64,000 bases of DNA from Escherichia phage VpaE1_ev035. Numbering within the stretch: the first letter of the stretch is position 1; the number at the start of each line of letters is the position of its first letter. A program made the translations under genes and the position numbers. Of the stretch, positions 24,650 through 31,443 are shown in pieces. The stretch lies in the sequence record LR699048. The stretch is one strand, 5' to 3'. The notes beneath the pieces are model-generated. The model saw nothing but the letters and a program-made list of their open reading frames with translations, searched no databases and was not told the DNA's origin.

Positions 24650-26065
24650 ATGAGCGAATTATTTAAACATGCGCACCTTCATGCAGGTCGAACTGAAAAT
24701 GGTGCTGTAAACCATACTTCATCAATGTCTGCTCTTGTAGACTTTTACAAAGCTGCTGGTTCTAGCCGTAGCAACGTAGAAATCTTACCAGACCTGTTCT
24801 ACAAAGCTTTGCGTGAGGATGTTGATGTTGCAGTTCGTATTTTGCTTCATATGCGAGATGTACGAGAAGGTATGGGTGAGCGTAAAGCCTTCAGAACTGT
24901 TTTGCTTCAAGCAATTGAAGATAAAGTTTTAGAGCCTACACAGGTTCTTCGCATTATGGATAAGATTGCAGAACTTGGTCGTTTTGATGACTTCAAAATC
25001 TTCGTAGGTACTCGTTTCGAGACAGATGCCTTCAAACATTTAGAAGCAGCATTACTAGACCCTGCAACAGCAGGTTTGGCAGCCAAGTGGCTACCACGAG
25101 TCAAACCACGTCATAAGCAGTTTGTAAAACGTTTCTGCAAGTTTGCCAACTTGAGTGAGAAAGAGTACCGCACACTGTTGTCTGCACTATCTGATACAGT
25201 TGAGCAAAAAATCTCTGCTAATGAGTTTGGTAAGATTGACTACAGTAAGATTCCTTCACTTGCTGCTGCACGTTACCAAAACCTGTTTAACCGTAAAGAT
25301 GGAGAGCGTTACAAAGCTTACATCGAGTCCTTATCAAAAGGTGAGACTAAGATTAACGCTGGTGCTGTTTACCCATACGATGTGATTAAATCTGTCAAGT
25401 ATGGTAATGCAGATGTTGCTAATGAGCAGTGGAAATCACTACCAAACTGGATGGCAGAAGGTGAAAACATCTTGTGTATGTCTGATGTATCAAGTTCAAT
25501 GTCTTGGGTGAATTTTGGCTCCATTACTGCTCTGGATATTGGTGTATCACTTGCCTTGTATGTAGCAGAACGCAATACAGGTTGCTTTAAGGATGAGTTG
25601 ATGGTTTATTCAACAAACCCTCACTTCATCGAACTGAGTGGTGATTTACGAAACCGTCATCGTCAGGTGATGCGACACGTTGAATATGGCTCAACCAACT
25701 TACAAGCAGCTTTTGACCGCATTCTTGAGATAGGTAAGAGAAACAACTTGACTCAGGAAGATATGCCAAGTAAGCTTATCATCTTCTCCGATATGGAGTT
25801 CAATCAGGTTGATGGAGCTAACGGTCGTACAAACTTTGAAGCAATTCAGAGCAAGTACAAGAAAGCTGGATATGAGATGCCACAACTGGTATTCTGGTAC
25901 TTAGCAAACCGTAATGGTACTTGCGAAGTGTCTGTTAAGGATAACGGTGTAGCAATGGTATCTGGTTTCTCTCCCGCCACTTTAAAAGCTCTGCTTGGTG
26001 GTGAGAAGTTTGACCCAATCAGCGTAATGCTCAAAGCAGTAATGATTGACCGTTATATCTGGTAA
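24650..26065 (+). CDS. vWA (MIDAS) domain protein with N-terminal helical domain; candidate Ro60/TROVE-like or DUF2828-like protein
   Basis: C-terminal half carries the vWA MIDAS signature in order: CMSDVSSSM (DxSxS), GSTNLQAAF (GxT), LIIFSDMEF (D); N-terminal ~250 aa predicted helical; TROVE assignment is an inference from architecture only. Confidence 0.55.
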   Translation: MSELFKHAHLHAGRTENGAVNHTSSMSALVDFYKAAGSSRSNVEILPDLFYKALREDVDVAVRILLHMRDVREGMGERKAFRTVLLQAIEDKVLEPTQVLRIMDKIAELGRFDDFKIFVGTRFETDAFKHLEAALLDPATAGLAAKWLPRVKPRHKQFVKRFCKFANLSEKEYRTLLSALSDTVEQKISANEFGKIDYSKIPSLAAARYQNLFNRKDGERYKAYIESLSKGETKINAGAVYPYDVIKSVKYGNADVANEQWKSLPNWMAEGENILCMSDVSSSMSWVNFGSITALDIGVSLALYVAERNTGCFKDELMVYSTNPHFIELSGDLRNRHRQVMRHVEYGSTNLQAAFDRILEIGKRNNLTQEDMPSKLIIFSDMEFNQVDGANGRTNFEAIQSKYKKAGYEMPQLVFWYLANRNGTCEVSVKDNGVAMVSGFSPATLKALLGGEKFDPISVMLKAVMIDRYIW

Positions 26066-26230: not shown

Positions 26231-26307
26231 CTCTGTTTAGCTCAGCTTGGTAGAGCGTTCCGTTTGGGGCGGTAAGGCCGGAGGTTCAAGTCCTCCAACA
26301 GAGACCA
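26231..26307 (+). tRNA. tRNA-Pro (anticodon UGG)
   Basis: Manual cloverleaf: acceptor CTCTGTT/AACAGAG (C1-G72), D-arm AGCTCAGCTTGGTAGAGC, loop UUUGGGG, T-arm GGAGG-TTCAAGT-CCTCC, encoded CCA. Confidence 0.75.
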
Positions 26308-26314
26308 AATTAAT

Positions 26315-26392
26315 GTTCCAGTGGACAAAATGGTAAAGTCACCACTCTTTCAAAGTGGATATTTGAGGGTTCAAATCCCTTCTGGAACGCCA
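26315..26392 (+). tRNA. tRNA-Glu (anticodon UUC)
   Basis: Acceptor GTTCCAG/CTGGAAC, anticodon stem CCACT/AGTGG with loop CUUUCAA, T-loop TTCAAAT, CCA. Confidence 0.75.
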
Positions 26393-26397
26393 GTTTT

Positions 26398-26475
26398 GAC
26401 AGAAGACCAATTACAGCAAGTTTAATCTTATTCATCTGAAGGTAAATCGGACAAAGAAGAGATTTGGTCTGGTCA
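26398..26475 (+). ncRNA. conserved structured tRNA-spacer element, copy 1
   Basis: 5' box GACAGAAGACCAATTACAGCAAG and 3' box TTTGGTCTGGTC fold as lower helix GAC/GUC, internal loop AGA opposite G, upper helix AGACCAA/UUGGUCU; ~43-nt apical region. Confidence 0.45.
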
Positions 26476-26483
26476 TTAAGAAT

Positions 26484-26560
26484 TGCGGGTATAGAGAAAT
26501 GGCGTCTCACATGTCTCATTAGCATGGTATCGGCAGGTTCGACTCCTGCACCCGCCTCCA
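26484..26560 (+). tRNA. tRNA-Met or Ile2 (anticodon CAU), non-canonical 1:72 pair
   Basis: Anticodon stem CATGT/GCATG, loop CUCAUUA; T-arm GCAGG-TTCGACT-CCTGC; acceptor pairs 6/7 with position 1 unpaired; CCA. Confidence 0.55.
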
Positions 26561-26564
26561 ATTT

Positions 26565-26629
26565 TGCAGAAGACCGTATTCAGCAACAAAATACTTTTTG
26601 CGGATAAAAGAAAAAACACGGTCTGGCAA
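26565..26629 (+). ncRNA. conserved structured tRNA-spacer element, copy 2
   Basis: 5' box TGCAGAAGACCGTATTCAGCAAC, 3' box ACACGGTCTGGCA; lower helix UGC/GCA (compensatory vs copy 1), same AGA/G internal loop, upper helix AGACCGU/ACGGUCU. Confidence 0.45.
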
Positions 26630-26637
26630 TGTATTAA

Positions 26638-26714
26638 GGTTAGGAAGCACATAAGGTATGTGCGGTCGCCTGTTAAGCGAATGGCACAGGGTTCGAATCC
26701 CTGACTAACCGCCA
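26638..26714 (+). tRNA. tRNA-Asn (anticodon GUU)
   Basis: Acceptor GGTTAGG/ACTAACC, D-stem GCAC/GTGC, loop CUGUUAA, T-arm CAGGG-TTCGAAT-CCCTG, CCA. Confidence 0.75.
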
Positions 26715-26783
26715 AATTTAGGAGAGAAGCGATTGCTCACCGATTTGTAAGGTGCAAGTCCTTAGCCTGAATAGAAATTAAAT

Positions 26784-26871
26784 GTGTCGTTATCCCGTAG
26801 ATGGTAGCGGTGGGGACTGTAAATCCCTTGTCATTGAGACTCGGTAGGTTCGACTCCTACACGGCACACCA
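26784..26871 (+). tRNA. tRNA-Tyr (anticodon GUA), long variable arm
   Basis: Acceptor GTGTCGT/ACGGCAC, anticodon stem GGGA/TCCC with loop CUGUAAA, ~16-nt variable arm, T-arm GTAGG-TTCGACT-CCTAC, CCA. Confidence 0.7.
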
Positions 26872-26876
26872 ATAAA

Positions 26877-26954
26877 GGTTATGTAGTTTAATTTGGTTAA
26901 AATACTCCCCTGTCACGGGAGATGATGAGGGTTCAAATCCCTTCGTAACCGCCA
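26877..26954 (+). tRNA. tRNA-Asp (anticodon GUC)
   Basis: Acceptor GGTTATG/CGTAACC, anticodon stem CTCCC/GGGAG with loop CUGUCAC, T-loop TTCAAAT, CCA. Confidence 0.75.
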
Positions 26955-27012
26955 ATTTTGAGAGGGCTATTTAGCCCCTCCCTTAAAGGGTTCTTACGAG
27001 TATCCTTTAAAG

Positions 27013-27092
27013 GAGCAGAAGACCAAATACAGCAAGTTACTTAAAATTTCAAGCCAATTTAATTTTGAAAAATTTAAAACTTGGTCTGGCTC
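27013..27092 (+). ncRNA. conserved structured tRNA-spacer element, copy 3
   Basis: 5' box GAGCAGAAGACCAAATACAGCAAG, 3' box CTTGGTCTGGCTC; lower helix GAGC/GCUC, AGA/G internal loop, upper helix AGACCAA/UUGGUCU. Confidence 0.45.
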
Positions 27093-27097
27093 AACAA

Positions 27098-27236
27098 ATT
27101 TACAGAAGACCGTTTACAGCAAAACTTAAACAATCTATTTCTCGGTAAAGAAAAGGCGAAGGTTCGATTCCTTCACTCGGCAGATGTCGAGTTGGTGTAA
27201 TGGTAGCACTTAAGATGATAAACAACGGTCTGGTAA
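27098..27236 (+). ncRNA. conserved structured tRNA-spacer element, copy 4, enclosing a circularly permuted tRNA-like module (Y RNA/YrlA-like architecture)
   Basis: 5' box TTTACAGAAGACCGTTTACAGCAA, 3' box AACGGTCTGGTAA (lower helix UUAC/GUAA, upper helix 8 bp); apical region 27158-27210 holds T-arm GAAGG-TTCGATT-CCTTC, then acceptor 3' strand ACTCGGC joined by a short loop to acceptor 5' strand GTCGAGT, then D-arm GTG-TAATGGTAG-CAC; no anticodon arm. Confidence 0.45.
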
Positions 27237-27382
27237 TTATCTTTGTAGATAAGTTATTAAGCTTACCTGTGAGTATGCGACCACAAAGGGTGAAAGGGTA
27301 AATTCTAGATTTAAACCCAAAAAGGCACATCGCTACAGACCTTAAGCAAGTCTGGGTAGCTTATCTACAAAGATAATTTAAT

Positions 27383-27458
27383 GGAAGTGTAGCAGAATGG
27401 TGATGCGGCAGACTTTTAATCTGACAGGCGATGGGTTCGAATCCCTCCACTTCTACCA
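27383..27458 (+). tRNA. tRNA-Lys (anticodon UUU)
   Basis: Acceptor GGAAGTG/CACTTCT, loop CUUUUAA, T-loop TTCGAAT, CCA; T-stem has mismatches. Confidence 0.6.
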
Positions 27459-27462
27459 ATAT

Positions 27463-27539
27463 GGTTCAGTCGCAGATAAGGTAATGCAAGGGTCTCGTAA
27501 GCCCTATGAATGTGGGTTCGAATCCCATCTGAACCTCCA
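27463..27539 (+). tRNA. tRNA-Thr (anticodon CGU)
   Basis: Acceptor GGTTCAG/CTGAACC, anticodon stem AGGGT/GCCCT with loop CUCGUAA, T-arm GTGGG-TTCGAAT-CCCAT, CCA. Confidence 0.7.
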
Positions 27540-27541
27540 AT

Positions 27542-27616
27542 TGTGGGTTAGCATAAATGGTAATGCAAACGGCTGATAACCGTTAGAAGAGGGTTCGATA
27601 CCCTCACCTACAACCA
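27542..27616 (+). tRNA. tRNA-Ile (anticodon GAU)
   Basis: Acceptor TGTGGGT/ACCTACA, anticodon stem AACGG/CCGTT with loop CUGAUAA, T-arm GAGGG-TTCGATA-CCCTC, CCA. Confidence 0.7.
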
Positions 27617-27631
27617 AGTTCAATAAAGTTG

Positions 27632-27660
27632 TTGACATTGAGATGTGACTACTTTATAGT
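27632..27660 (+). promoter_or_regulatory. sigma70-like promoter inside tRNA array (TTGACA-N17-TATAGT)
   Basis: -35 27632-27637, 17-nt spacer, -10 27655-27660. Confidence 0.5.
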
Positions 27661-27864
27661 AACCTTAGTTTTCGTTGCGTAGCGTCTATTTTGCAAATTT
27701 AAAATAAATGCAAACGACAATGTTTTTCTGGCAGTAGCTTGATAGGCTAAACACCAGTGAGGTCTTCCAATCCCTCATCAAAGAATTTGGCGTACTCGCC
27801 CACGGTATGATTAATAAGGTGGGCATCTTTAAGGGCTTTCTAAGAGAGTCTTTAAAGATAATTA

Positions 27865-27946
27865 CGGGGCGTATCTCAGCGGTCTTCTAAACCGCCGTTA
27901 ACCGAGTAAGTGGAGTATGCGGGTTCGAGTCCTGCCGCCTCGACCA
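27865..27946 (+). tRNA. tRNA-Arg-like (anticodon UCU) with aberrant D-arm and enlarged variable region
   Basis: Acceptor CGGGGCG/CGCCTCG, anticodon stem GCGGT/ACCGC with loop CUUCUAA, T-arm GCGGG-TTCGAGT-CCTGC, CCA; D-region does not fold canonically. Confidence 0.45.
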
Positions 27947-28089
27947 ATTTAGTTAGCAGATTACTTAGACGACCTAAGCGGGTCTTCCTGTAGGGAGGTG
28001 GTCTGTATCTCATGTTTTCCAGAACATGTAAATAATCTGAGAAGGGGCTTTACAGTGTTGAGATAATACGGTAAGCTTCGAATTATAGT

Positions 28090-28172
28090 ATGGGACGATG
28101 TTAAGACTCTAAGGCATGAGCAACGGCCTCCAAAACCGTTTCAAAGGGGTTCAACTCCTCCGTCCCATGCCA
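28090..28172 (+). tRNA. tRNA-Trp (anticodon CCA) with expanded D-region
   Basis: Perfect 7-bp acceptor ATGGGAC/GTCCCAT, anticodon loop CUCCAAA (as in E. coli tRNA-Trp), T-loop TTCAACT, CCA; ~6 extra nt before the anticodon stem. Confidence 0.5.
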
Positions 28173-28185
28173 AAGTCTTATTAGG

Positions 28186-28275
28186 GGTAGGTAGCGGCTA
28201 ATGGTAGCCAAACTGTCTTGAAAACAGTTGCCACTGTAGAGATACGGTGAGGGTTCGACTCCTTTACTTACCGCC
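28186..28275 (+). tRNA. tRNA-Ser (anticodon UGA), long variable arm, CCA apparently not encoded
   Basis: Acceptor GGTAGGT/ACTTACC, D-stem GGC/GCC, anticodon stem ACTGT/ACAGT with loop CUUGAAA, long variable arm, T-loop TTCGACT. Confidence 0.6.
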
Positions 28276-28531
28276 TAATAAGATTTAAAGCCAAGCTTCA
28301 TTCGGATGTTGCTTTGGTATCCCTCGTGTATTGTCGTACACGCACAGTAAAGCACCTAGTAGGTGTCACGGAGAAGAGATAATATCAAGCTCTCCAAAGG
28401 TTCTAGTCACCGGATTAAACAAGACTATGCAAAGACCAAATTAGGTCTTTTTAGAGGGCTTCTAAGGTTATTACAGCTTGTTGTGGAACCTTGTTGCTTA
28501 GGTTCTTAGAAGTTCTCTAAAAAGATTTAAT

Positions 28532-28609
28532 GGGAGATTGATGGTAATTGGTAAACCTATCTCGCTTAGAACGAGATGTTTGAGGGTTCGAATCCCTTGT
28601 CTCCTACCA
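28532..28609 (+). tRNA. tRNA with Leu anticodon UAG but short variable arm (type-I architecture)
   Basis: Acceptor GGGAGAT/GTCTCCT, anticodon stem TCTCG/CGAGA with loop CUUAGAA, 5-nt variable loop, T-arm GAGGG-TTCGAAT-CCCTT, A73, CCA. Confidence 0.55.
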
Positions 28610-28616
28610 AATTAAT

Positions 28617-28692
28617 GCAGGTGTAGCAAAATGGTTATGCGGCTGACTCTTAATCAGTAAGACGATGGGTTCAATTCCCTCCACCTGTACCA
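28617..28692 (+). tRNA. tRNA-Lys (anticodon CUU)
   Basis: Acceptor GCAGGTG/CACCTGT, anticodon stem GCTGA/TCAGT with loop CUCUUAA, T-loop TTCAATT, CCA. Confidence 0.55.
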
Positions 28693-28698
28693 AAAAAT

Positions 28699-28774
28699 GG
28701 GGTCATAGTTTATATGGTTAAAATTCGAGTTTTGCAAACTTGGGAACTGAGTTCAATTCTCAGTGACTCCACCA
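28699..28774 (+). tRNA. tRNA-Ala (anticodon UGC)
   Basis: Acceptor GGGGTCA/TGACTCC, loop UUUGCAA, T-arm CTGAG-TTCAATT-CTCAG, CCA. Confidence 0.7.
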
Positions 28775-28780
28775 ATTAGT

Positions 28781-28855
28781 GCATCCATAGTTTAAACGGG
28801 AAAATTACAGTCTTCCAAACTGAGGTTGAGGGTTCGATTCCCTCTGGATGCTCCA
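28781..28855 (+). tRNA. tRNA-Gly (anticodon UCC)
   Basis: Perfect acceptor GCATCCA/TGGATGC, loop CUUCCAA, T-arm GAGGG-TTCGATT-CCCTC, CCA. Confidence 0.75.
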
Positions 28856-28861
28856 AATAAT

Positions 28862-28937
28862 GCTCCTATCGTATAATTGGCTATTACGGTTGCCTTGTAA
28901 GCAACTTATCAGGGTTCGAATCCTTGTGGGAGCACCA
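28862..28937 (+). tRNA. tRNA-Thr (anticodon UGU)
   Basis: Acceptor GCTCCTA/TGGGAGC, anticodon stem GTTGC/GCAAC with loop CUUGUAA, T-arm CAGGG-TTCGAAT-CCTTG, CCA. Confidence 0.75.
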
Positions 28938-29032
28938 ATTCAGAGGTCAAGTGAAAGACCGCTGGTGTCAACTGAAGACCGTAACAAATTCCACGGAGTT
29001 GAGTTAGCGGCACAACTTCAGACCTCTTTCAC
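28938..29032 (+). ncRNA. candidate structured RNA between tRNA-Thr(UGU) and tRNA-Val
   Basis: Multiple complementary segments (GAGGTC/GACCTC, GTGAAAG/CTTTCAC, CTGAAG/CTTCAG); contains a GAAGACCG box related to the spacer elements; no tRNA fold. Confidence 0.3.
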
Positions 29033-29107
29033 ACTCGCTTAGTTTATATGGTAAAACATCACCCTTACAAGATGAAGAAAAAGGTTCAAGTCCTTTAGTG
29101 AGTACCA
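29033..29107 (+). tRNA. tRNA-Val (anticodon UAC)
   Basis: Acceptor ACTCGCT/AGTGAGT, loop CUUACAA, T-arm AAAGG-TTCAAGT-CCTTT, CCA. Confidence 0.65.
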
Positions 29108-29108
29108 T

Positions 29109-29186
29109 GTTCCAGTATCCCAATTGGCAGAGGATGCAAGCTCAAACCTTGTACTAGTGACGGTTCGAATCCGTCTTGGAACACCA
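29109..29186 (+). tRNA. tRNA with Leu anticodon CAA but short variable arm (type-I architecture)
   Basis: Acceptor GTTCCAG/TTGGAAC, anticodon stem GCAAG/CTTGT with loop CUCAAAC, T-arm GACGG-TTCGAAT-CCGTC, A73, CCA. Confidence 0.55.
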
Positions 29187-29191
29187 ATTTT

Positions 29192-29267
29192 GCAGGATTA
29201 GTTCAAATGGATAGAGCAACAGTCTACGAAGCTGTTAATAGGGGTTCGAATCCCTTATCCTGCACCA
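29192..29267 (+). tRNA. tRNA-Arg (anticodon ACG)
   Basis: Perfect acceptor GCAGGAT/ATCCTGC, D-arm GTTCAAATGGATAGAGC, loop CUACGAA, T-arm AGGGG-TTCGAAT-CCCTT, CCA. Confidence 0.8.
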
Positions 29268-29285
29268 GATAAGCAAGAGGAATTT

Positions 29286-29528
29286 ATGCAAACATTAATC
29301 GTCGTTGAACATGAAAATTCCAATAGTATTGAGTTTGTAAGGGTTCCCACTATAGATACCCACATTTTCTTAAAAGTCGGATGGGAATGCGACCCAATAA
29401 AAGTAGAAAGATTTATTGGTCATTGCTTTGGTGGAAGACAACTTAAAAGTGTCAATTTTGAGACAATGTTACCAGAAAGCTCAGAAACAAGTAATAATGC
29501 TTACCTCCTTACGAGGGTTAGACAATGA
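29286..29528 (+). CDS. hypothetical protein (inside tRNA array)
   Basis: ORF track, ATG with AGAGG RBS. Confidence 0.4.
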   Translation: MQTLIVVEHENSNSIEFVRVPTIDTHIFLKVGWECDPIKVERFIGHCFGGRQLKSVNFETMLPESSETSNNAYLLTRVRQ

Positions 29529-30082
29529 GATACTTAAAATATGCTTCATGGATTTTCTTAGCTTTGCTAGAACCACTTGCAGCAATACTAGCAGTTATCT
29601 TAGCACCTTTCGTAGTTCCATTCTACAGTGAGAAGAAAGGACATCTACCTTTTGGATTCAGATGGATGGAGACCTATGACAACCCAATTGATGGTGATGA
29701 AGGTCACGTTAAAAGATGGGCTAATATTAGATGGATTGGTAAACTAGGTGTCTACATGCAAAGAGTTGGATGGCTCTGGAGAAACAAAGCTTATAACTTC
29801 TCTTACCATGTGTTAGGAAGAGATGTAAAAGATGTTACTAAGTGGAAAGGTAATATCAACGTAAGTTCTAACCCTGAAGATAATCAGACTGGTTATCTCC
29901 TAATGTGGAACAGGAATGCTTGGGGATTATTCGCTTTTATCCCATCAATTAAAATCTTTGGTAAACAATTTTACTGGAGAATTTATATTGGATGGAAACT
30001 AAAAAGTGTTGTCCCAGAAGAAAGAGCATTCTCAAGGGAAAGAGTTATGTTGGCATTCTTTATTCATCCACTGAGAAAGTAA
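29525..30082 (+). CDS. hypothetical membrane protein (inside tRNA array)
   Basis: N-terminal hydrophobic segment IFLALLEPLAAILAVILAPFVV; Trp-rich. Confidence 0.45.
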   Translation: MRYLKYASWIFLALLEPLAAILAVILAPFVVPFYSEKKGHLPFGFRWMETYDNPIDGDEGHVKRWANIRWIGKLGVYMQRVGWLWRNKAYNFSYHVLGRDVKDVTKWKGNINVSSNPEDNQTGYLLMWNRNAWGLFAFIPSIKIFGKQFYWRIYIGWKLKSVVPEERAFSRERVMLAFFIHPLRK

Positions 30083-30090
30083 AGATTTAA

Positions 30091-30166
30091 AGGGGATTAG
30101 TTTACAAGGTTAAAACCTCGGTCTTTGAAATCGAAGAAGTTGGTTCAATTCCAACATCCCCCGCCA
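30091..30166 (+). tRNA. tRNA-Gln (anticodon UUG)
   Basis: Acceptor AGGGGAT/ATCCCCC (1:72 unpaired), anticodon stem TCGGT/ATCGA with loop CUUUGAA, T-arm GTTGG-TTCAATT-CCAAC, CCA. Confidence 0.65.
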
Positions 30167-30168
30167 AT

Positions 30169-30247
30169 GCTCCATTACTCCAATTGGCAGAGAGGCCAGA
30201 CTTAAAATCTGTGTTATGTATCGGTTCGAATCCGATATGGAGTACCA
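30169..30247 (+). tRNA. tRNA with Leu anticodon UAA but short variable arm (type-I architecture)
   Basis: Acceptor GCTCCAT/ATGGAGT, anticodon stem CCAGA/TCTGT with loop CUUAAAA, T-arm ATCGG-TTCGAAT-CCGAT, A73, CCA. Confidence 0.55.
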
Positions 30248-30252
30248 AATTT

Positions 30253-30328
30253 AGCGGTATAGCATAACTGGCAATGCAGCAGTCTCTGAAGCTGTCTTAT
30301 TAAGGTTCAAATCCTTATGCCGCTGCCA
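30253..30328 (+). tRNA. tRNA-Gln (anticodon CUG)
   Basis: Acceptor AGCGGTA/TGCCGCT, anticodon stem GCAGT/GCTGT (two G-U pairs) with loop CUCUGAA, T-arm TAAGG-TTCAAAT-CCTTA, CCA. Confidence 0.6.
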
Positions 30329-30359
30329 CTTCTAAGGGTTCTTACGAGAGTCCTTAAAT

Positions 30360-30435
30360 GTGGCCTTATCATAAATGGTAATGACCCATGCTGTGAACAT
30401 GGTCTATACGGGTTCAAATCCCGTAGGTCACCCCA
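30360..30435 (+). tRNA. tRNA-His (anticodon GUG)
   Basis: Acceptor GTGGCCT/AGGTCAC, perfect anticodon stem CCATG/CATGG with loop CUGUGAA, T-arm ACGGG-TTCAAAT-CCCGT, discriminator C73, CCA. Confidence 0.75.
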
Positions 30436-30440
30436 ATTTA

Positions 30441-30517
30441 TAGTCCAAGTAGCTTATATGGTTAAAGCGCGTGTCTGAAAAACATGAGAAGAGGGTTCAA
30501 ATCCCACTGGACTACCA
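30441..30517 (+). tRNA. tRNA-Phe (anticodon GAA)
   Basis: Acceptor TAGTCCA/TGGACTA, anticodon stem CGTGT/ACATG with loop CUGAAAA, T-loop TTCAAAT; exact ends uncertain. Confidence 0.6.
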
Positions 30518-30533
30518 ATTTCAAAGGTGCTTA

Positions 30534-31268
30534 ATGAAAGAGATGACAGAACAAGGTAAGGAGATTTTTAATCTCTTAAAAACTGGTAAAGGGTTCTCTA
30601 ATCCCCTTATTACTGGTGCAGCAGTTCTCGGTGGAACCGTAGCTGCCTCTATATCACTTGTAAGCTCTATTAGCTCTGTAACAGACCCTACAATAAAAGA
30701 TAAACTTGTTGCTGCTGGACTTACAACAGTTCTGCTTAACAGCTTTACAACGAGTCTGACAAGCACTACATCAACTACCAAAACGCTAACGGATTATGGT
30801 CAAAAATCCATTGATGAGTTTTCATCACGTATGCAGGTAGCAAAAGGTTATTCTAATGTTATGGGTGCAGCAGGGGAGCAAGTTGGTTGTACACCGTTTA
30901 GTGGTATTATGGGCGTTGCTACAGAATATGGTCAAAAAGCTATTGACACAATTAACAGTGCACTAGATGGCGTTAATGATGTGTTAAGTGACTTACAAGA
31001 TGCTATTGATAATGGTCTTGATACTGTTTCTGATTTAGCTAACCAAGCTGTCAGTAAGATTAATGAAGGTATCTCAAAGATTACAGCTTATGCAGATGAA
31101 GTTGTGCAGATGATTGAAGAAGAGGCTGCCCTTATTGCAGAGTACCTTAAAACGAATATCAATGGGTTCTTAGCAGGTATCTTACCAGACTGGTTTGATG
31201 ATGCCTGTAAAACTGGTGTAATTGACACTATTGCAACACCAGAAATGAAGAGCGCATTACAGAAATAA
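30534..31268 (+). CDS. hypothetical protein (inside tRNA array)
   Basis: ORF track frame 30471..31268 starts inside tRNA-Phe; first ATG after the tRNA at 30534; Ser/Thr/Ala-rich with helical C-terminus. Confidence 0.5.
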   Translation: MKEMTEQGKEIFNLLKTGKGFSNPLITGAAVLGGTVAASISLVSSISSVTDPTIKDKLVAAGLTTVLLNSFTTSLTSTTSTTKTLTDYGQKSIDEFSSRMQVAKGYSNVMGAAGEQVGCTPFSGIMGVATEYGQKAIDTINSALDGVNDVLSDLQDAIDNGLDTVSDLANQAVSKINEGISKITAYADEVVQMIEEEAALIAEYLKTNINGFLAGILPDWFDDACKTGVIDTIATPEMKSALQK

Positions 31269-31269
31269 T

Positions 31270-31360
31270 GGAAGATTAACCCTAAAAGGTAAGGGAGCAG
31301 TTTGCTAAACTGCCAGTAGCTGAGAAATCGGTGTACCAGTTCAAGTCTGGTATCTTCCTC
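31270..31360 (+). tRNA. tRNA-Ser (anticodon GCU), long variable arm
   Basis: Perfect acceptor GGAAGAT/ATCTTCC, D-stem CCC/GGG, perfect anticodon stem GCAGT/ACTGC with loop UUGCUAA, ~20-nt variable arm, T-arm ACCAG-TTCAAGT-CTGGT, CCA. Confidence 0.8.
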
Positions 31361-31367
31361 CAATTTT

Positions 31368-31443
31368 GAATCCGTGACAGAAATGGATATGTGCCTGTCT
31401 GCAAAACAGGTTTATAAGGGTTCAAGTCCCTTCGGATTCTCCA
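31368..31443 (+). tRNA. tRNA-Cys (anticodon GCA)
   Basis: Perfect acceptor GAATCCG/CGGATTC, perfect anticodon stem CCTGT/ACAGG with loop CUGCAAA, T-arm AAGGG-TTCAAGT-CCCTT, CCA. Confidence 0.8.

Follow-up and report, generated by a model that had tools for sequence, protein, structure and literature searches.

The 64,000-nucleotide (nt) stretch of Escherichia phage VpaE1_ev035 analyzed here (record LR699048; the whole stretch is termed the window, and positions are window coordinates) carries, within an array of transfer RNA (tRNA) genes, three genes with the leucine anticodons UAG, CAA and UAA that lack the long variable arm, which textbooks and recent papers hold to be the hallmark of bacterial tRNALeu. 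Their variable regions are UGUUU (5 nt) in Leu(UAG), ACUAGU (6 nt) in Leu(CAA) and GUUAUGU (7 nt) in Leu(UAA), without a stem, so the genes are not classed with the class II tRNALeu, whose variable arm exceeds 10 nt and forms a stem-loop. Combining a leucine anticodon with a short unpaired variable loop and leucine-type identity nucleotides, all three are type I tRNALeu. Judging from their sequences, we consider it likely that they are functional phage leucine tRNAs which would be charged by the host's leucyl-tRNA synthetase (LeuRS) and serve phage codons. The three tRNAs are no new kind of molecule: short-arm tRNALeu are already known from mitochondria, Streptomyces coelicolor and a mycobacterial cluster, and the phage genes have been annotated as tRNA-Leu. 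What appears to be new here is the short arm of phage leucine tRNAs, little noticed in mobile tRNA sets, and full-text literature searches found no description of short-arm tRNALeu in Felix O1-like or other phages.

An initial annotation, made from the letters alone, had reported three Leu-anticodon tRNAs of 78-79 nt with variable loops of 5-7 nt and A73, and had noted that both tRNA-Ser and the tRNA-Tyr of the same array keep long arms. ARAGORN matched its coordinates exactly and gave arms of 15-21 nt to the Ser and Tyr genes. The placement of the anticodons also held under software folding, with ARAGORN keeping UAG, CAA and UAA in cloverleaves with stems of 7/3/5/5 base pairs (bp), and Rfam scoring every gene above the gathering score of its tRNA model (RF00005, 29 bits). 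Leu(UAG), Leu(CAA) and Leu(UAA) reached 44.7, 43.6 and 47.5 bits, respectively, over model positions 1-71 of 71, a clear pass, yet among the lower scores in the array. The accompanying premise that bacterial tRNA-Leu are always class II was too strong, given the short-arm tRNALeu known in Streptomyces, and our scans undercut it further, the short form being frequent in phages and, by record titles, in Actinomycetota.

All three genes have A73 and an encoded CCA end. The D arm consists of a 3-bp stem and a loop of 11-12 nt reading N13-A14-A15-U16-U17-G18-G19-N20-A20a-R21-A22, as opposed to the 4-bp D stems and 7-9 nt loops of the other class I tRNAs of the array. Leu(CAA) (stem UCC/GGA) and Leu(UAA) (stem CUC/GAG) share the 11-nt loop CAAUUGGCAGA, and the loop of Leu(UAG) is UAAUUGGUAAA. 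Each of the three has the U8-A14 pair and the A15-U48 Levitt pair, U48 being the last position of the variable loop, and the T loop, UUCGAAU, is accompanied by the elbow pairs G18-U55, G19-C56 and U54-A58. Leu(UAG) and Leu(UAA) start their acceptor stem with G1·U72, Leu(CAA) with G1-C72, and a G3·U70 pair is absent from all of them. Leu(UAG) carries one extra D-arm nucleotide 5' of A14 (a stem bulge or a 12-nt loop), which is T in the window and C in relatives. A frame error by ARAGORN was considered for this nucleotide and rejected, as the extra base (T or C) occurs in all relatives, the homolog in the T5-like Escherichia phage FFH1 being without it. The anticodon loop of Leu(UAG), CUUAGAA, differs from that of the host at three positions, with A37 where the host has G37 (PMC12482277), the m1G37 site of the E. 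coli counterpart, and Leu(UAA) has a C27·U43 mismatch.

The published determinants of leucine identity in E. coli are A73, A15-U48, G18G19, A20a and the tertiary pairs that join the D loop to the T loop (PMC9976931; the element list is given likewise in PMC6614811 and PMC2377443), and every element listed was found in all three phage tRNAs. [quoted passage not shown] The suggestion in the initial annotation that these tRNAs are charged through A73 alone was thus right in its direction, but "alone" did not stand, since the entire tertiary-core identity set, U8-A14 included, is kept besides A73. The D-loop motif, A73 and U48 were rarely combined in non-Leu tRNAs: among about 1,900 of these, taken unselected from the loci collected, the share was 0-2% for an isotype and peaked at 10% in Lys. 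The tRNAscan-SE isotype scores published for phage Sf14 (PMC12482277), in a 2025 study of its tRNAs that never discusses the variable arm, place Leu as the top model for all three genes (67.4, 49.1 and 60.2). The anticodon loops of Sf14 match those of Sf13, whose Leu(CAA) and Leu(UAA) are 1-2 nt off those of the window and whose Leu(UAG) shows several anticodon-stem changes, mostly compensatory.

Apart from the variable arm, the phage genes closely resemble the leucine tRNAs of their host. With the E. coli genes leuQPV, leuZ, leuW, leuX and leuU they share A73, U8-A14, A15-U48 and the encoded CCA, as well as the 3-bp D stem and a loop N-A-A-U-Y-G-G-U-A-G-A that includes A20a; leuZ and leuU also share G1·U72 with two of the phage tRNAs, and the anticodons UAA, CAA and UAG are common to both sets. 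The five tRNALeu species of E. coli K-12 and the tRNALeu genes of phages T4 and T5 are, however, all 85-87 nt in length with long arms, the E. coli arms being paired where the phage tRNAs have 5-7 unpaired nt. The T4 and T5 genes are likewise phage-encoded, in tRNA clusters of E. coli phages, and T4 tRNALeu has a D loop, AAAUUGGUAAA, that barely differs from the UAAUUGGUAAA of Leu(UAG), but the T4 and T5 tRNAs are classical type II (87 nt in T4, 85 nt in T5), whereas the T5 relative FFH1 has type I instead.

Closer structural parallels come from other systems. The type I tRNALeu(CAA) of S. coelicolor has a 5-nt variable loop and an important U8-A14 pair (Fan et al. 2019, PMC6614811), and in that organism type I and type II tRNALeu share one cytoplasm and a single LeuRS (PMC6614811). 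It differs in being chromosomal and in its variable loop, ACAGC (C48), whereas the phage tRNAs are phage-borne and have U48; the S. coelicolor LeuRS reportedly does not use A73 as an identity element (PMC6614811). It was also left uncharged by E. coli LeuRS in vitro, whereas the phage tRNAs, if functional, must work in E. coli or Salmonella. Animal mitochondrial tRNALeu(UUR) also has a short variable loop, with an identity that is essentially A73 and A14 (PMC9976931), but it is organellar, served by a dedicated mitochondrial LeuRS and floppy and rich in mismatches, with no sign of common descent with the phage genes. The tRNALeu(TAG) of a mycobacterial cluster (Behra et al. 2019, PMC6582537) is borne on a mobile element or cluster and has a short variable loop alongside a long-arm chromosomal isoacceptor; it differs in that it was given one sentence without analysis, belongs to another host phylum and was not linked there to enterobacterial phages (PMC6582537).

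Hundreds of records of Felix O1-like phages contain the three genes at 97-100% identity, and many already annotate "tRNA-Leu (x3)". Leu(UAG) and its counterpart in Salmonella phage FelixO1 (AF320576) are 100% identical, Leu(CAA) matches 291 phage records (69 at ≥99% identity), and Leu(UAA) is identical in 14 of 15 further Ounavirinae contigs. All Leu tRNAs of Si3 (Felixounavirus), SUSP1 (Suspvirus), Sf13 (Mooglevirus) and Erwinia phage phiEa21-4 (Kolesnikvirus) are 77-79 nt long, and solely this length was seen in the Leu genes of 21 further Ounavirinae contigs from IMG/VR, among which a second type I allele occupies the position of Leu(UAG). In the anticodon stem of Leu(UAG), three of the five pairs differ on both sides between the window and SUSP1/Sf13, two-sided differences in this stem also separate the window from Si3, and relative to the window phiEa21-4 has wholly rewritten acceptor stems that still pair, including that of the Leu(CAA) counterpart. 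When 163 unique short Leu tRNAs were compared at 20 stem positions, 97% of the cells paired, as opposed to 57% after shuffling, and each position showed 4-6 types of pair; the former figure is inflated because ARAGORN calls only sequences that pair. In these comparisons, the base pairs of the Leu tRNAs are maintained by compensatory change and the short form is conserved across the Ounavirinae sampled, so that the three genes are no product of chance.

Charging of these tRNAs would depend on the host. A tblastn search with E. coli LeuS gave no matches in records of Escherichia, Salmonella, Erwinia or Felixounavirus phages, and no synthetase domain was found by Pfam in the window open reading frames (ORFs) of ≥380 aa; a phage-encoded LeuRS was rejected as the charging route on these negatives, so that, if the tRNAs are charged, it is the host LeuRS that does it. 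After transcription of the array and processing by RNase P and at the 3' end, the host enzyme would leucylate them via A73 and the tertiary core, reading neither the anticodon nor, according to the publications, the long arm. Loss of the arm would take away the element required by the seryl-tRNA synthetase (SerRS), so that no mis-serylation would be expected. In decoding, the UAA anticodon would read UUA and UUG, CAA would read UUG, and UAG would read CUA and CUG, possibly CUN. Compactness, portability between hosts and escape from arm-reading enzymes are candidate reasons for the short form.

The leucine codons of 66 window ORFs (39% G+C in this codon count) are UUA (28.5%), CUU (27%), UUG (13%), CUG (13%), CUA (12%) and CUC (6%). 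In E. coli, roughly 50% of leucine codons are CUG, 13% UUA and 4% CUA. UUA, CUA and CUU are about two to three times commoner among the leucine codons of the phage than in its CUG-dominated host, and on these counts the three anticodons would serve codons that the phage favors far more than the host does. Conserved arm-less leucine tRNAs in a classic phage of E. coli and Salmonella provide a natural and readily testable case in the best-studied LeuRS system, raising the questions of which elements suffice for leucine identity, how editing and the CTD and LSD domains operate without the arm, and what the phage gains from arm loss. The short form also matters for annotation, as pipelines sometimes label such genes tRNA-OTHER or pseudogenes.

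Several observations weigh against functional, host-charged leucine tRNAs. The S. coelicolor type I tRNALeu(CAA), the one other bacterial type I tRNALeu assayed, was not leucylated by E. coli LeuRS, which was called type II-only (PMC6614811); C48 in that tRNA, as opposed to U48 in the phage tRNAs, may be the reason for this failure. A 2025 structural paper credits the arm with a significant share in LeuRS fidelity (PMC12360207). Leu(UAG) combines an irregular D stem with A37 in place of the host G37, Leu(UAA) contains the C27·U43 mismatch, and some records label Si3 Leu(UAG) and phiEa21-4 Leu(UAA) as "tRNA-OTHER" or pseudogene. The minimum-free-energy fold is a cloverleaf for Leu(UAG) only, with non-significant z-scores of -1.3 to -1.6; thermodynamic folding is uninformative for AT-rich, normally modified tRNAs, and comparative evidence was therefore used in its place. 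Our own isotype hidden Markov models (HMMs), built from about 1,900 ARAGORN-labeled tRNAs stripped of anticodon and variable region, and with a Leu model trained on type II only, rank Leu top for CAA (20.9 vs. 16.0) and UAA (30.2 vs. 29.0) and fourth for UAG; only 15 of the 25 array tRNAs were classified correctly, so these models are weak evidence either way.

The short form extends well beyond the Ounavirinae. A scan pattern combining a D loop of the Leu type with an NAR anticodon lying close to the T loop matched at least 120 IMG/VR contigs, and among the matches listed there were 154 unique Leu tRNAs of 74-80 nt, with A73 in 154/154 and U48 in 153/154, neither of which is part of the pattern. 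In the loci with these viral short Leu tRNAs the Ser and Tyr tRNAs are long. When a length-neutral version of the pattern was used, the short class was present in 23 of 120 IMG/VR contigs among the matches listed, and the gap between anticodon and T loop was bimodal in viral contigs (15-19 vs. 22-27 nt), the window genes falling in the short class. As to a single origin of type I tRNALeu or independent losses of the arm, the nearest neighbors, with variable loop and anticodon removed, were other short Leu tRNAs at 0.74-0.84 identity, which is only slightly higher than for the best type II neighbors (0.68-0.74). A blastn search with Leu(UAA) found no match in 5,426 E. coli genomes, and hence no host or prophage source of this gene in E. 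coli. FFH1 has a 77-nt Leu(UAG) and a 77-nt Leu(UAA) (locus L349, 5997-6073 and 1058-1134), and the former adjoins tRNA-Ala, in the slot held in T5 by an 85-nt type II Leu(UAG) (L010, 11625-11709). Both phages belong to the genus Tequintavirus, so that the two forms can stand in for each other in a single phage genus on the same host. In its T arm and 3' acceptor strand, FFH1 Leu(UAG) is identical to window Leu(UAG), which suggests that T5-like and Felix O1-like phages, and hence phage families, have exchanged tRNA genes.

Among bacterial contigs (one genome per species), the short-Leu matches listed were mostly single genes and, by untallied record titles, mostly from Actinomycetota; the remainder of those listed had several different Leu anticodons and came from cyanobacteria, Planctomycetota and Acidobacteriota, where they lay in large tRNA arrays. 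Record titles of short Leu genes include Nocardia, Mycobacterium, Gordonia, Rhodococcus, Corynebacterium, Arthrobacter and Bifidobacterium (loci L132-L251). Short Leu tRNAs (74-80 nt) whose D loop reads CAAUUGGCAGA and whose variable loop is, for example, CCAGU or ACAGU are single chromosomal genes in many genomes, and UAA is the commonest anticodon among the short Leu tRNAs of the bacterial loci listed.

This distribution bears on whether the short arm is itself adaptive, either by hiding the tRNAs from enzymes that recognize class II tRNAs by their long arm (toxins, defense nucleases or nucleotidyltransferases), so that leucine decoding would be kept when host tRNALeu is attacked, or by making them independent of the host, in that they would not rely on the length and orientation of an arm. 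Such a reading extends the explanation of functional, host-charged tRNAs and is compatible with it and with the data, though we regard it as unlikely. It would fit the recurrence of the short form in mobile tRNA sets, in both the viral contigs and the bacterial arrays described above, and the mycobacterial tRNA cluster in which the tRNA is short and the chromosomal isoacceptor long (PMC6582537). A precedent for arm reading is provided by MenT3 of Mycobacterium tuberculosis, which requires a correctly oriented long variable loop for its preferred action on tRNA-Ser (PMC11541572), and tRNA arrays are discussed as putative anti-defense systems (PMC12803027). The three differences between the Leu(UAG) anticodon loop and the host are of a kind that has been tied to anticodon-nuclease resistance (PMC12482277). 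On the other hand, no E. coli or Salmonella enzyme attacking tRNALeu via its arm was found in the literature examined, T4 and T5 thrive in the same host with type II Leu tRNAs, and the single-copy chromosomal short Leu tRNAs, whose record titles are mostly of Actinomycetota, have no obvious defense context. The Ser and Tyr tRNAs of the same arrays also keep their arms, though there the arm is needed for identity. A distinct, horizontally circulating "portable" lineage of type I tRNALeu on phages and mobile tRNA arrays, in which arm loss was selected against arm-reading defense systems or toxins while charging by LeuRS was preserved via A73 and the tertiary core, is to be viewed with the same reserve; if it exists, E. 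coli LeuRS, described as type II-only, routinely charges type I substrates during infection.

An altered identity, also raised in the initial annotation, would mean that the tRNAs read leucine codons while charged with another amino acid, or are not charged by LeuRS, so that translation is recoded or perturbed; this we consider very improbable. The failure of E. coli LeuRS on the S. coelicolor type I tRNALeu(CAA) (PMC6614811) can be read in its favor, as can the closeness of Ile2 (65.7) and Lys (63.4) to Leu (67.4) in the scores of Sf14 Leu(UAG) (PMC12482277), the placing of Gly and Ala above Leu for Leu(UAG) by our own HMMs, and the tRNA-OTHER label in some records. The anticodons UAG, CAA and UAA, however, suit no anticodon-reading synthetase other than those for Leu codons, and the tRNAs offer neither G3·U70 to the alanyl-tRNA synthetase nor a long arm to SerRS. 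A73, A15-U48 and the Leu-type D loop, a combination rare in the non-Leu sample, are invariant in hundreds of homologs, and the published Sf14 isotype scores, with Leu top for all three, likewise oppose a changed identity. Mistranslation of three to four of the six leucine codons (about half of the leucine codons of the phage) would be highly deleterious, whereas the genes are conserved in the Ounavirinae sampled.

That the genes are pseudogenes, decayed by deletion of the arm and hitch-hiking in the array, is the least credible reading, for although they score near the bottom of the array in Rfam, Leu(UAG) has an irregular D stem, Leu(UAA) has a mismatch and a CAA/UAA deletion chimera in Si3 demonstrates that the array does rearrange, the short form is found in three independent genes and four Ounavirinae genera with many two-sided compensatory changes, stem positions are paired as reported above across 163 distinct sequences, identity nucleotides beyond the search pattern are invariant and CCA is encoded in all three.

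The Si3 gene (locus L007, 5001-5079) joins the 5' part of Leu(CAA), up to the common D loop, to the 3' part of Leu(UAA), and its acceptor can form 6 of 7 pairs (4 Watson-Crick and 2 G·U wobbles). The Si3 locus is without the Arg(ACG) and Gln(UUG) genes that separate the two Leu genes in the window, and the chimera looks like the product of a deletion by recombination between the D-loop sequences, which are identical in the two paralogs.

The features of the array are collected in Table 1. A few small ORFs break up the 25 tRNA genes, all of which lie on one strand, and the array is flanked by a gene for a DUF2828/DUF7788 "RNA-binding protein" on one side and by the large terminase gene on the other (Pfam). 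Many Felix O1-like myoviruses of E. coli and Salmonella (Felixounavirus) share 95-97% identity with the 5.5 kb around the array, Felixounavirus LF82P3 reaching 96.7% across the 5.5 kb; by sequence similarity, the window is a Felixounavirus.

Table 1. Leucine tRNA genes, the tRNA array containing them and the long-arm tRNA genes serving as internal controls (window coordinates).
Feature	Position	Strand	Length	Remark	Called by
tRNA-Leu(UAG)	28532..28609	+	78 nt	type I	ARAGORN, Rfam tRNA
tRNA-Leu(CAA)	29109..29186	+	78 nt	type I	ARAGORN, Rfam tRNA
tRNA-Leu(UAA)	30169..30247	+	79 nt	type I	ARAGORN, Rfam tRNA
tRNA array	26231..31443	+		25 genes including 3 Leu	ARAGORN
tRNA-Tyr(GUA)	26784..26871	+	88 nt	15-nt variable arm kept; internal control	ARAGORN
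tRNA-Ser(UGA)	28186..28275	+	90 nt	20-nt variable arm kept; internal control	ARAGORN
tRNA-Ser(GCU)	31270..31362	+	93 nt	21-nt variable arm kept; internal control	ARAGORN

Other tRNA-like elements of the array also depart from the usual form. The gene at 27463-27539 (+) is called tRNA-Thr(CGU) by ARAGORN, whereas its orthologs in Si3, SUSP1, Sf13 and 21 further Ounavirinae contigs carry CAU on a Met/Ile2-type body with U73 and otherwise differ by 1-3 nt; a single A35-to-G change may have given a CAU tRNA a Thr anticodon, either as a true anticodon switch or as a sequencing error. At 27865-27943 (+), in the position of a normal tRNA-Arg(UCU) in SUSP1 and Sf13, lies an element that matches the Rfam tRNA model at 31.7 bits and is not called by ARAGORN; it has the anticodon stem-loop CUUCUAA (Arg UCU), an apparently truncated D arm and about 22 nt extra ahead of the T arm, and may be a degenerate or non-canonical tRNA. 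A further tRNA-like element at 28092-28166 (+), also not called by ARAGORN, matches the tRNA-Sec model weakly (23 bits) and has a paired acceptor (GGGACGA/…CCGUCCC), a T arm, the loop CUCCAAA (CCA being a Trp anticodon) and an oversized D region; the window array is without a regular tRNA-Trp, of which phiEa21-4 has one.

The gene directly upstream of the array, 24650-26065 (+), has a product of 471 aa that contains DUF2828 and DUF7788, matches vWA weakly and is named "RNA-binding protein" in related RefSeq records. Its domain layout presumably resembles that of the Ro60/Rsr-type RNA-binding proteins, and the position of this gene beside tRNAs and odd tRNA-like RNAs may be meaningful. Two further proteins are encoded inside the array, one of 185 aa (29525-30082, +) with a hydrophobic N-terminal stretch and DUF7338, and a DUF7217 protein of 244 aa (30534-31268, +), which the Sf13 record gives as a predicted receptor-recognition protein.

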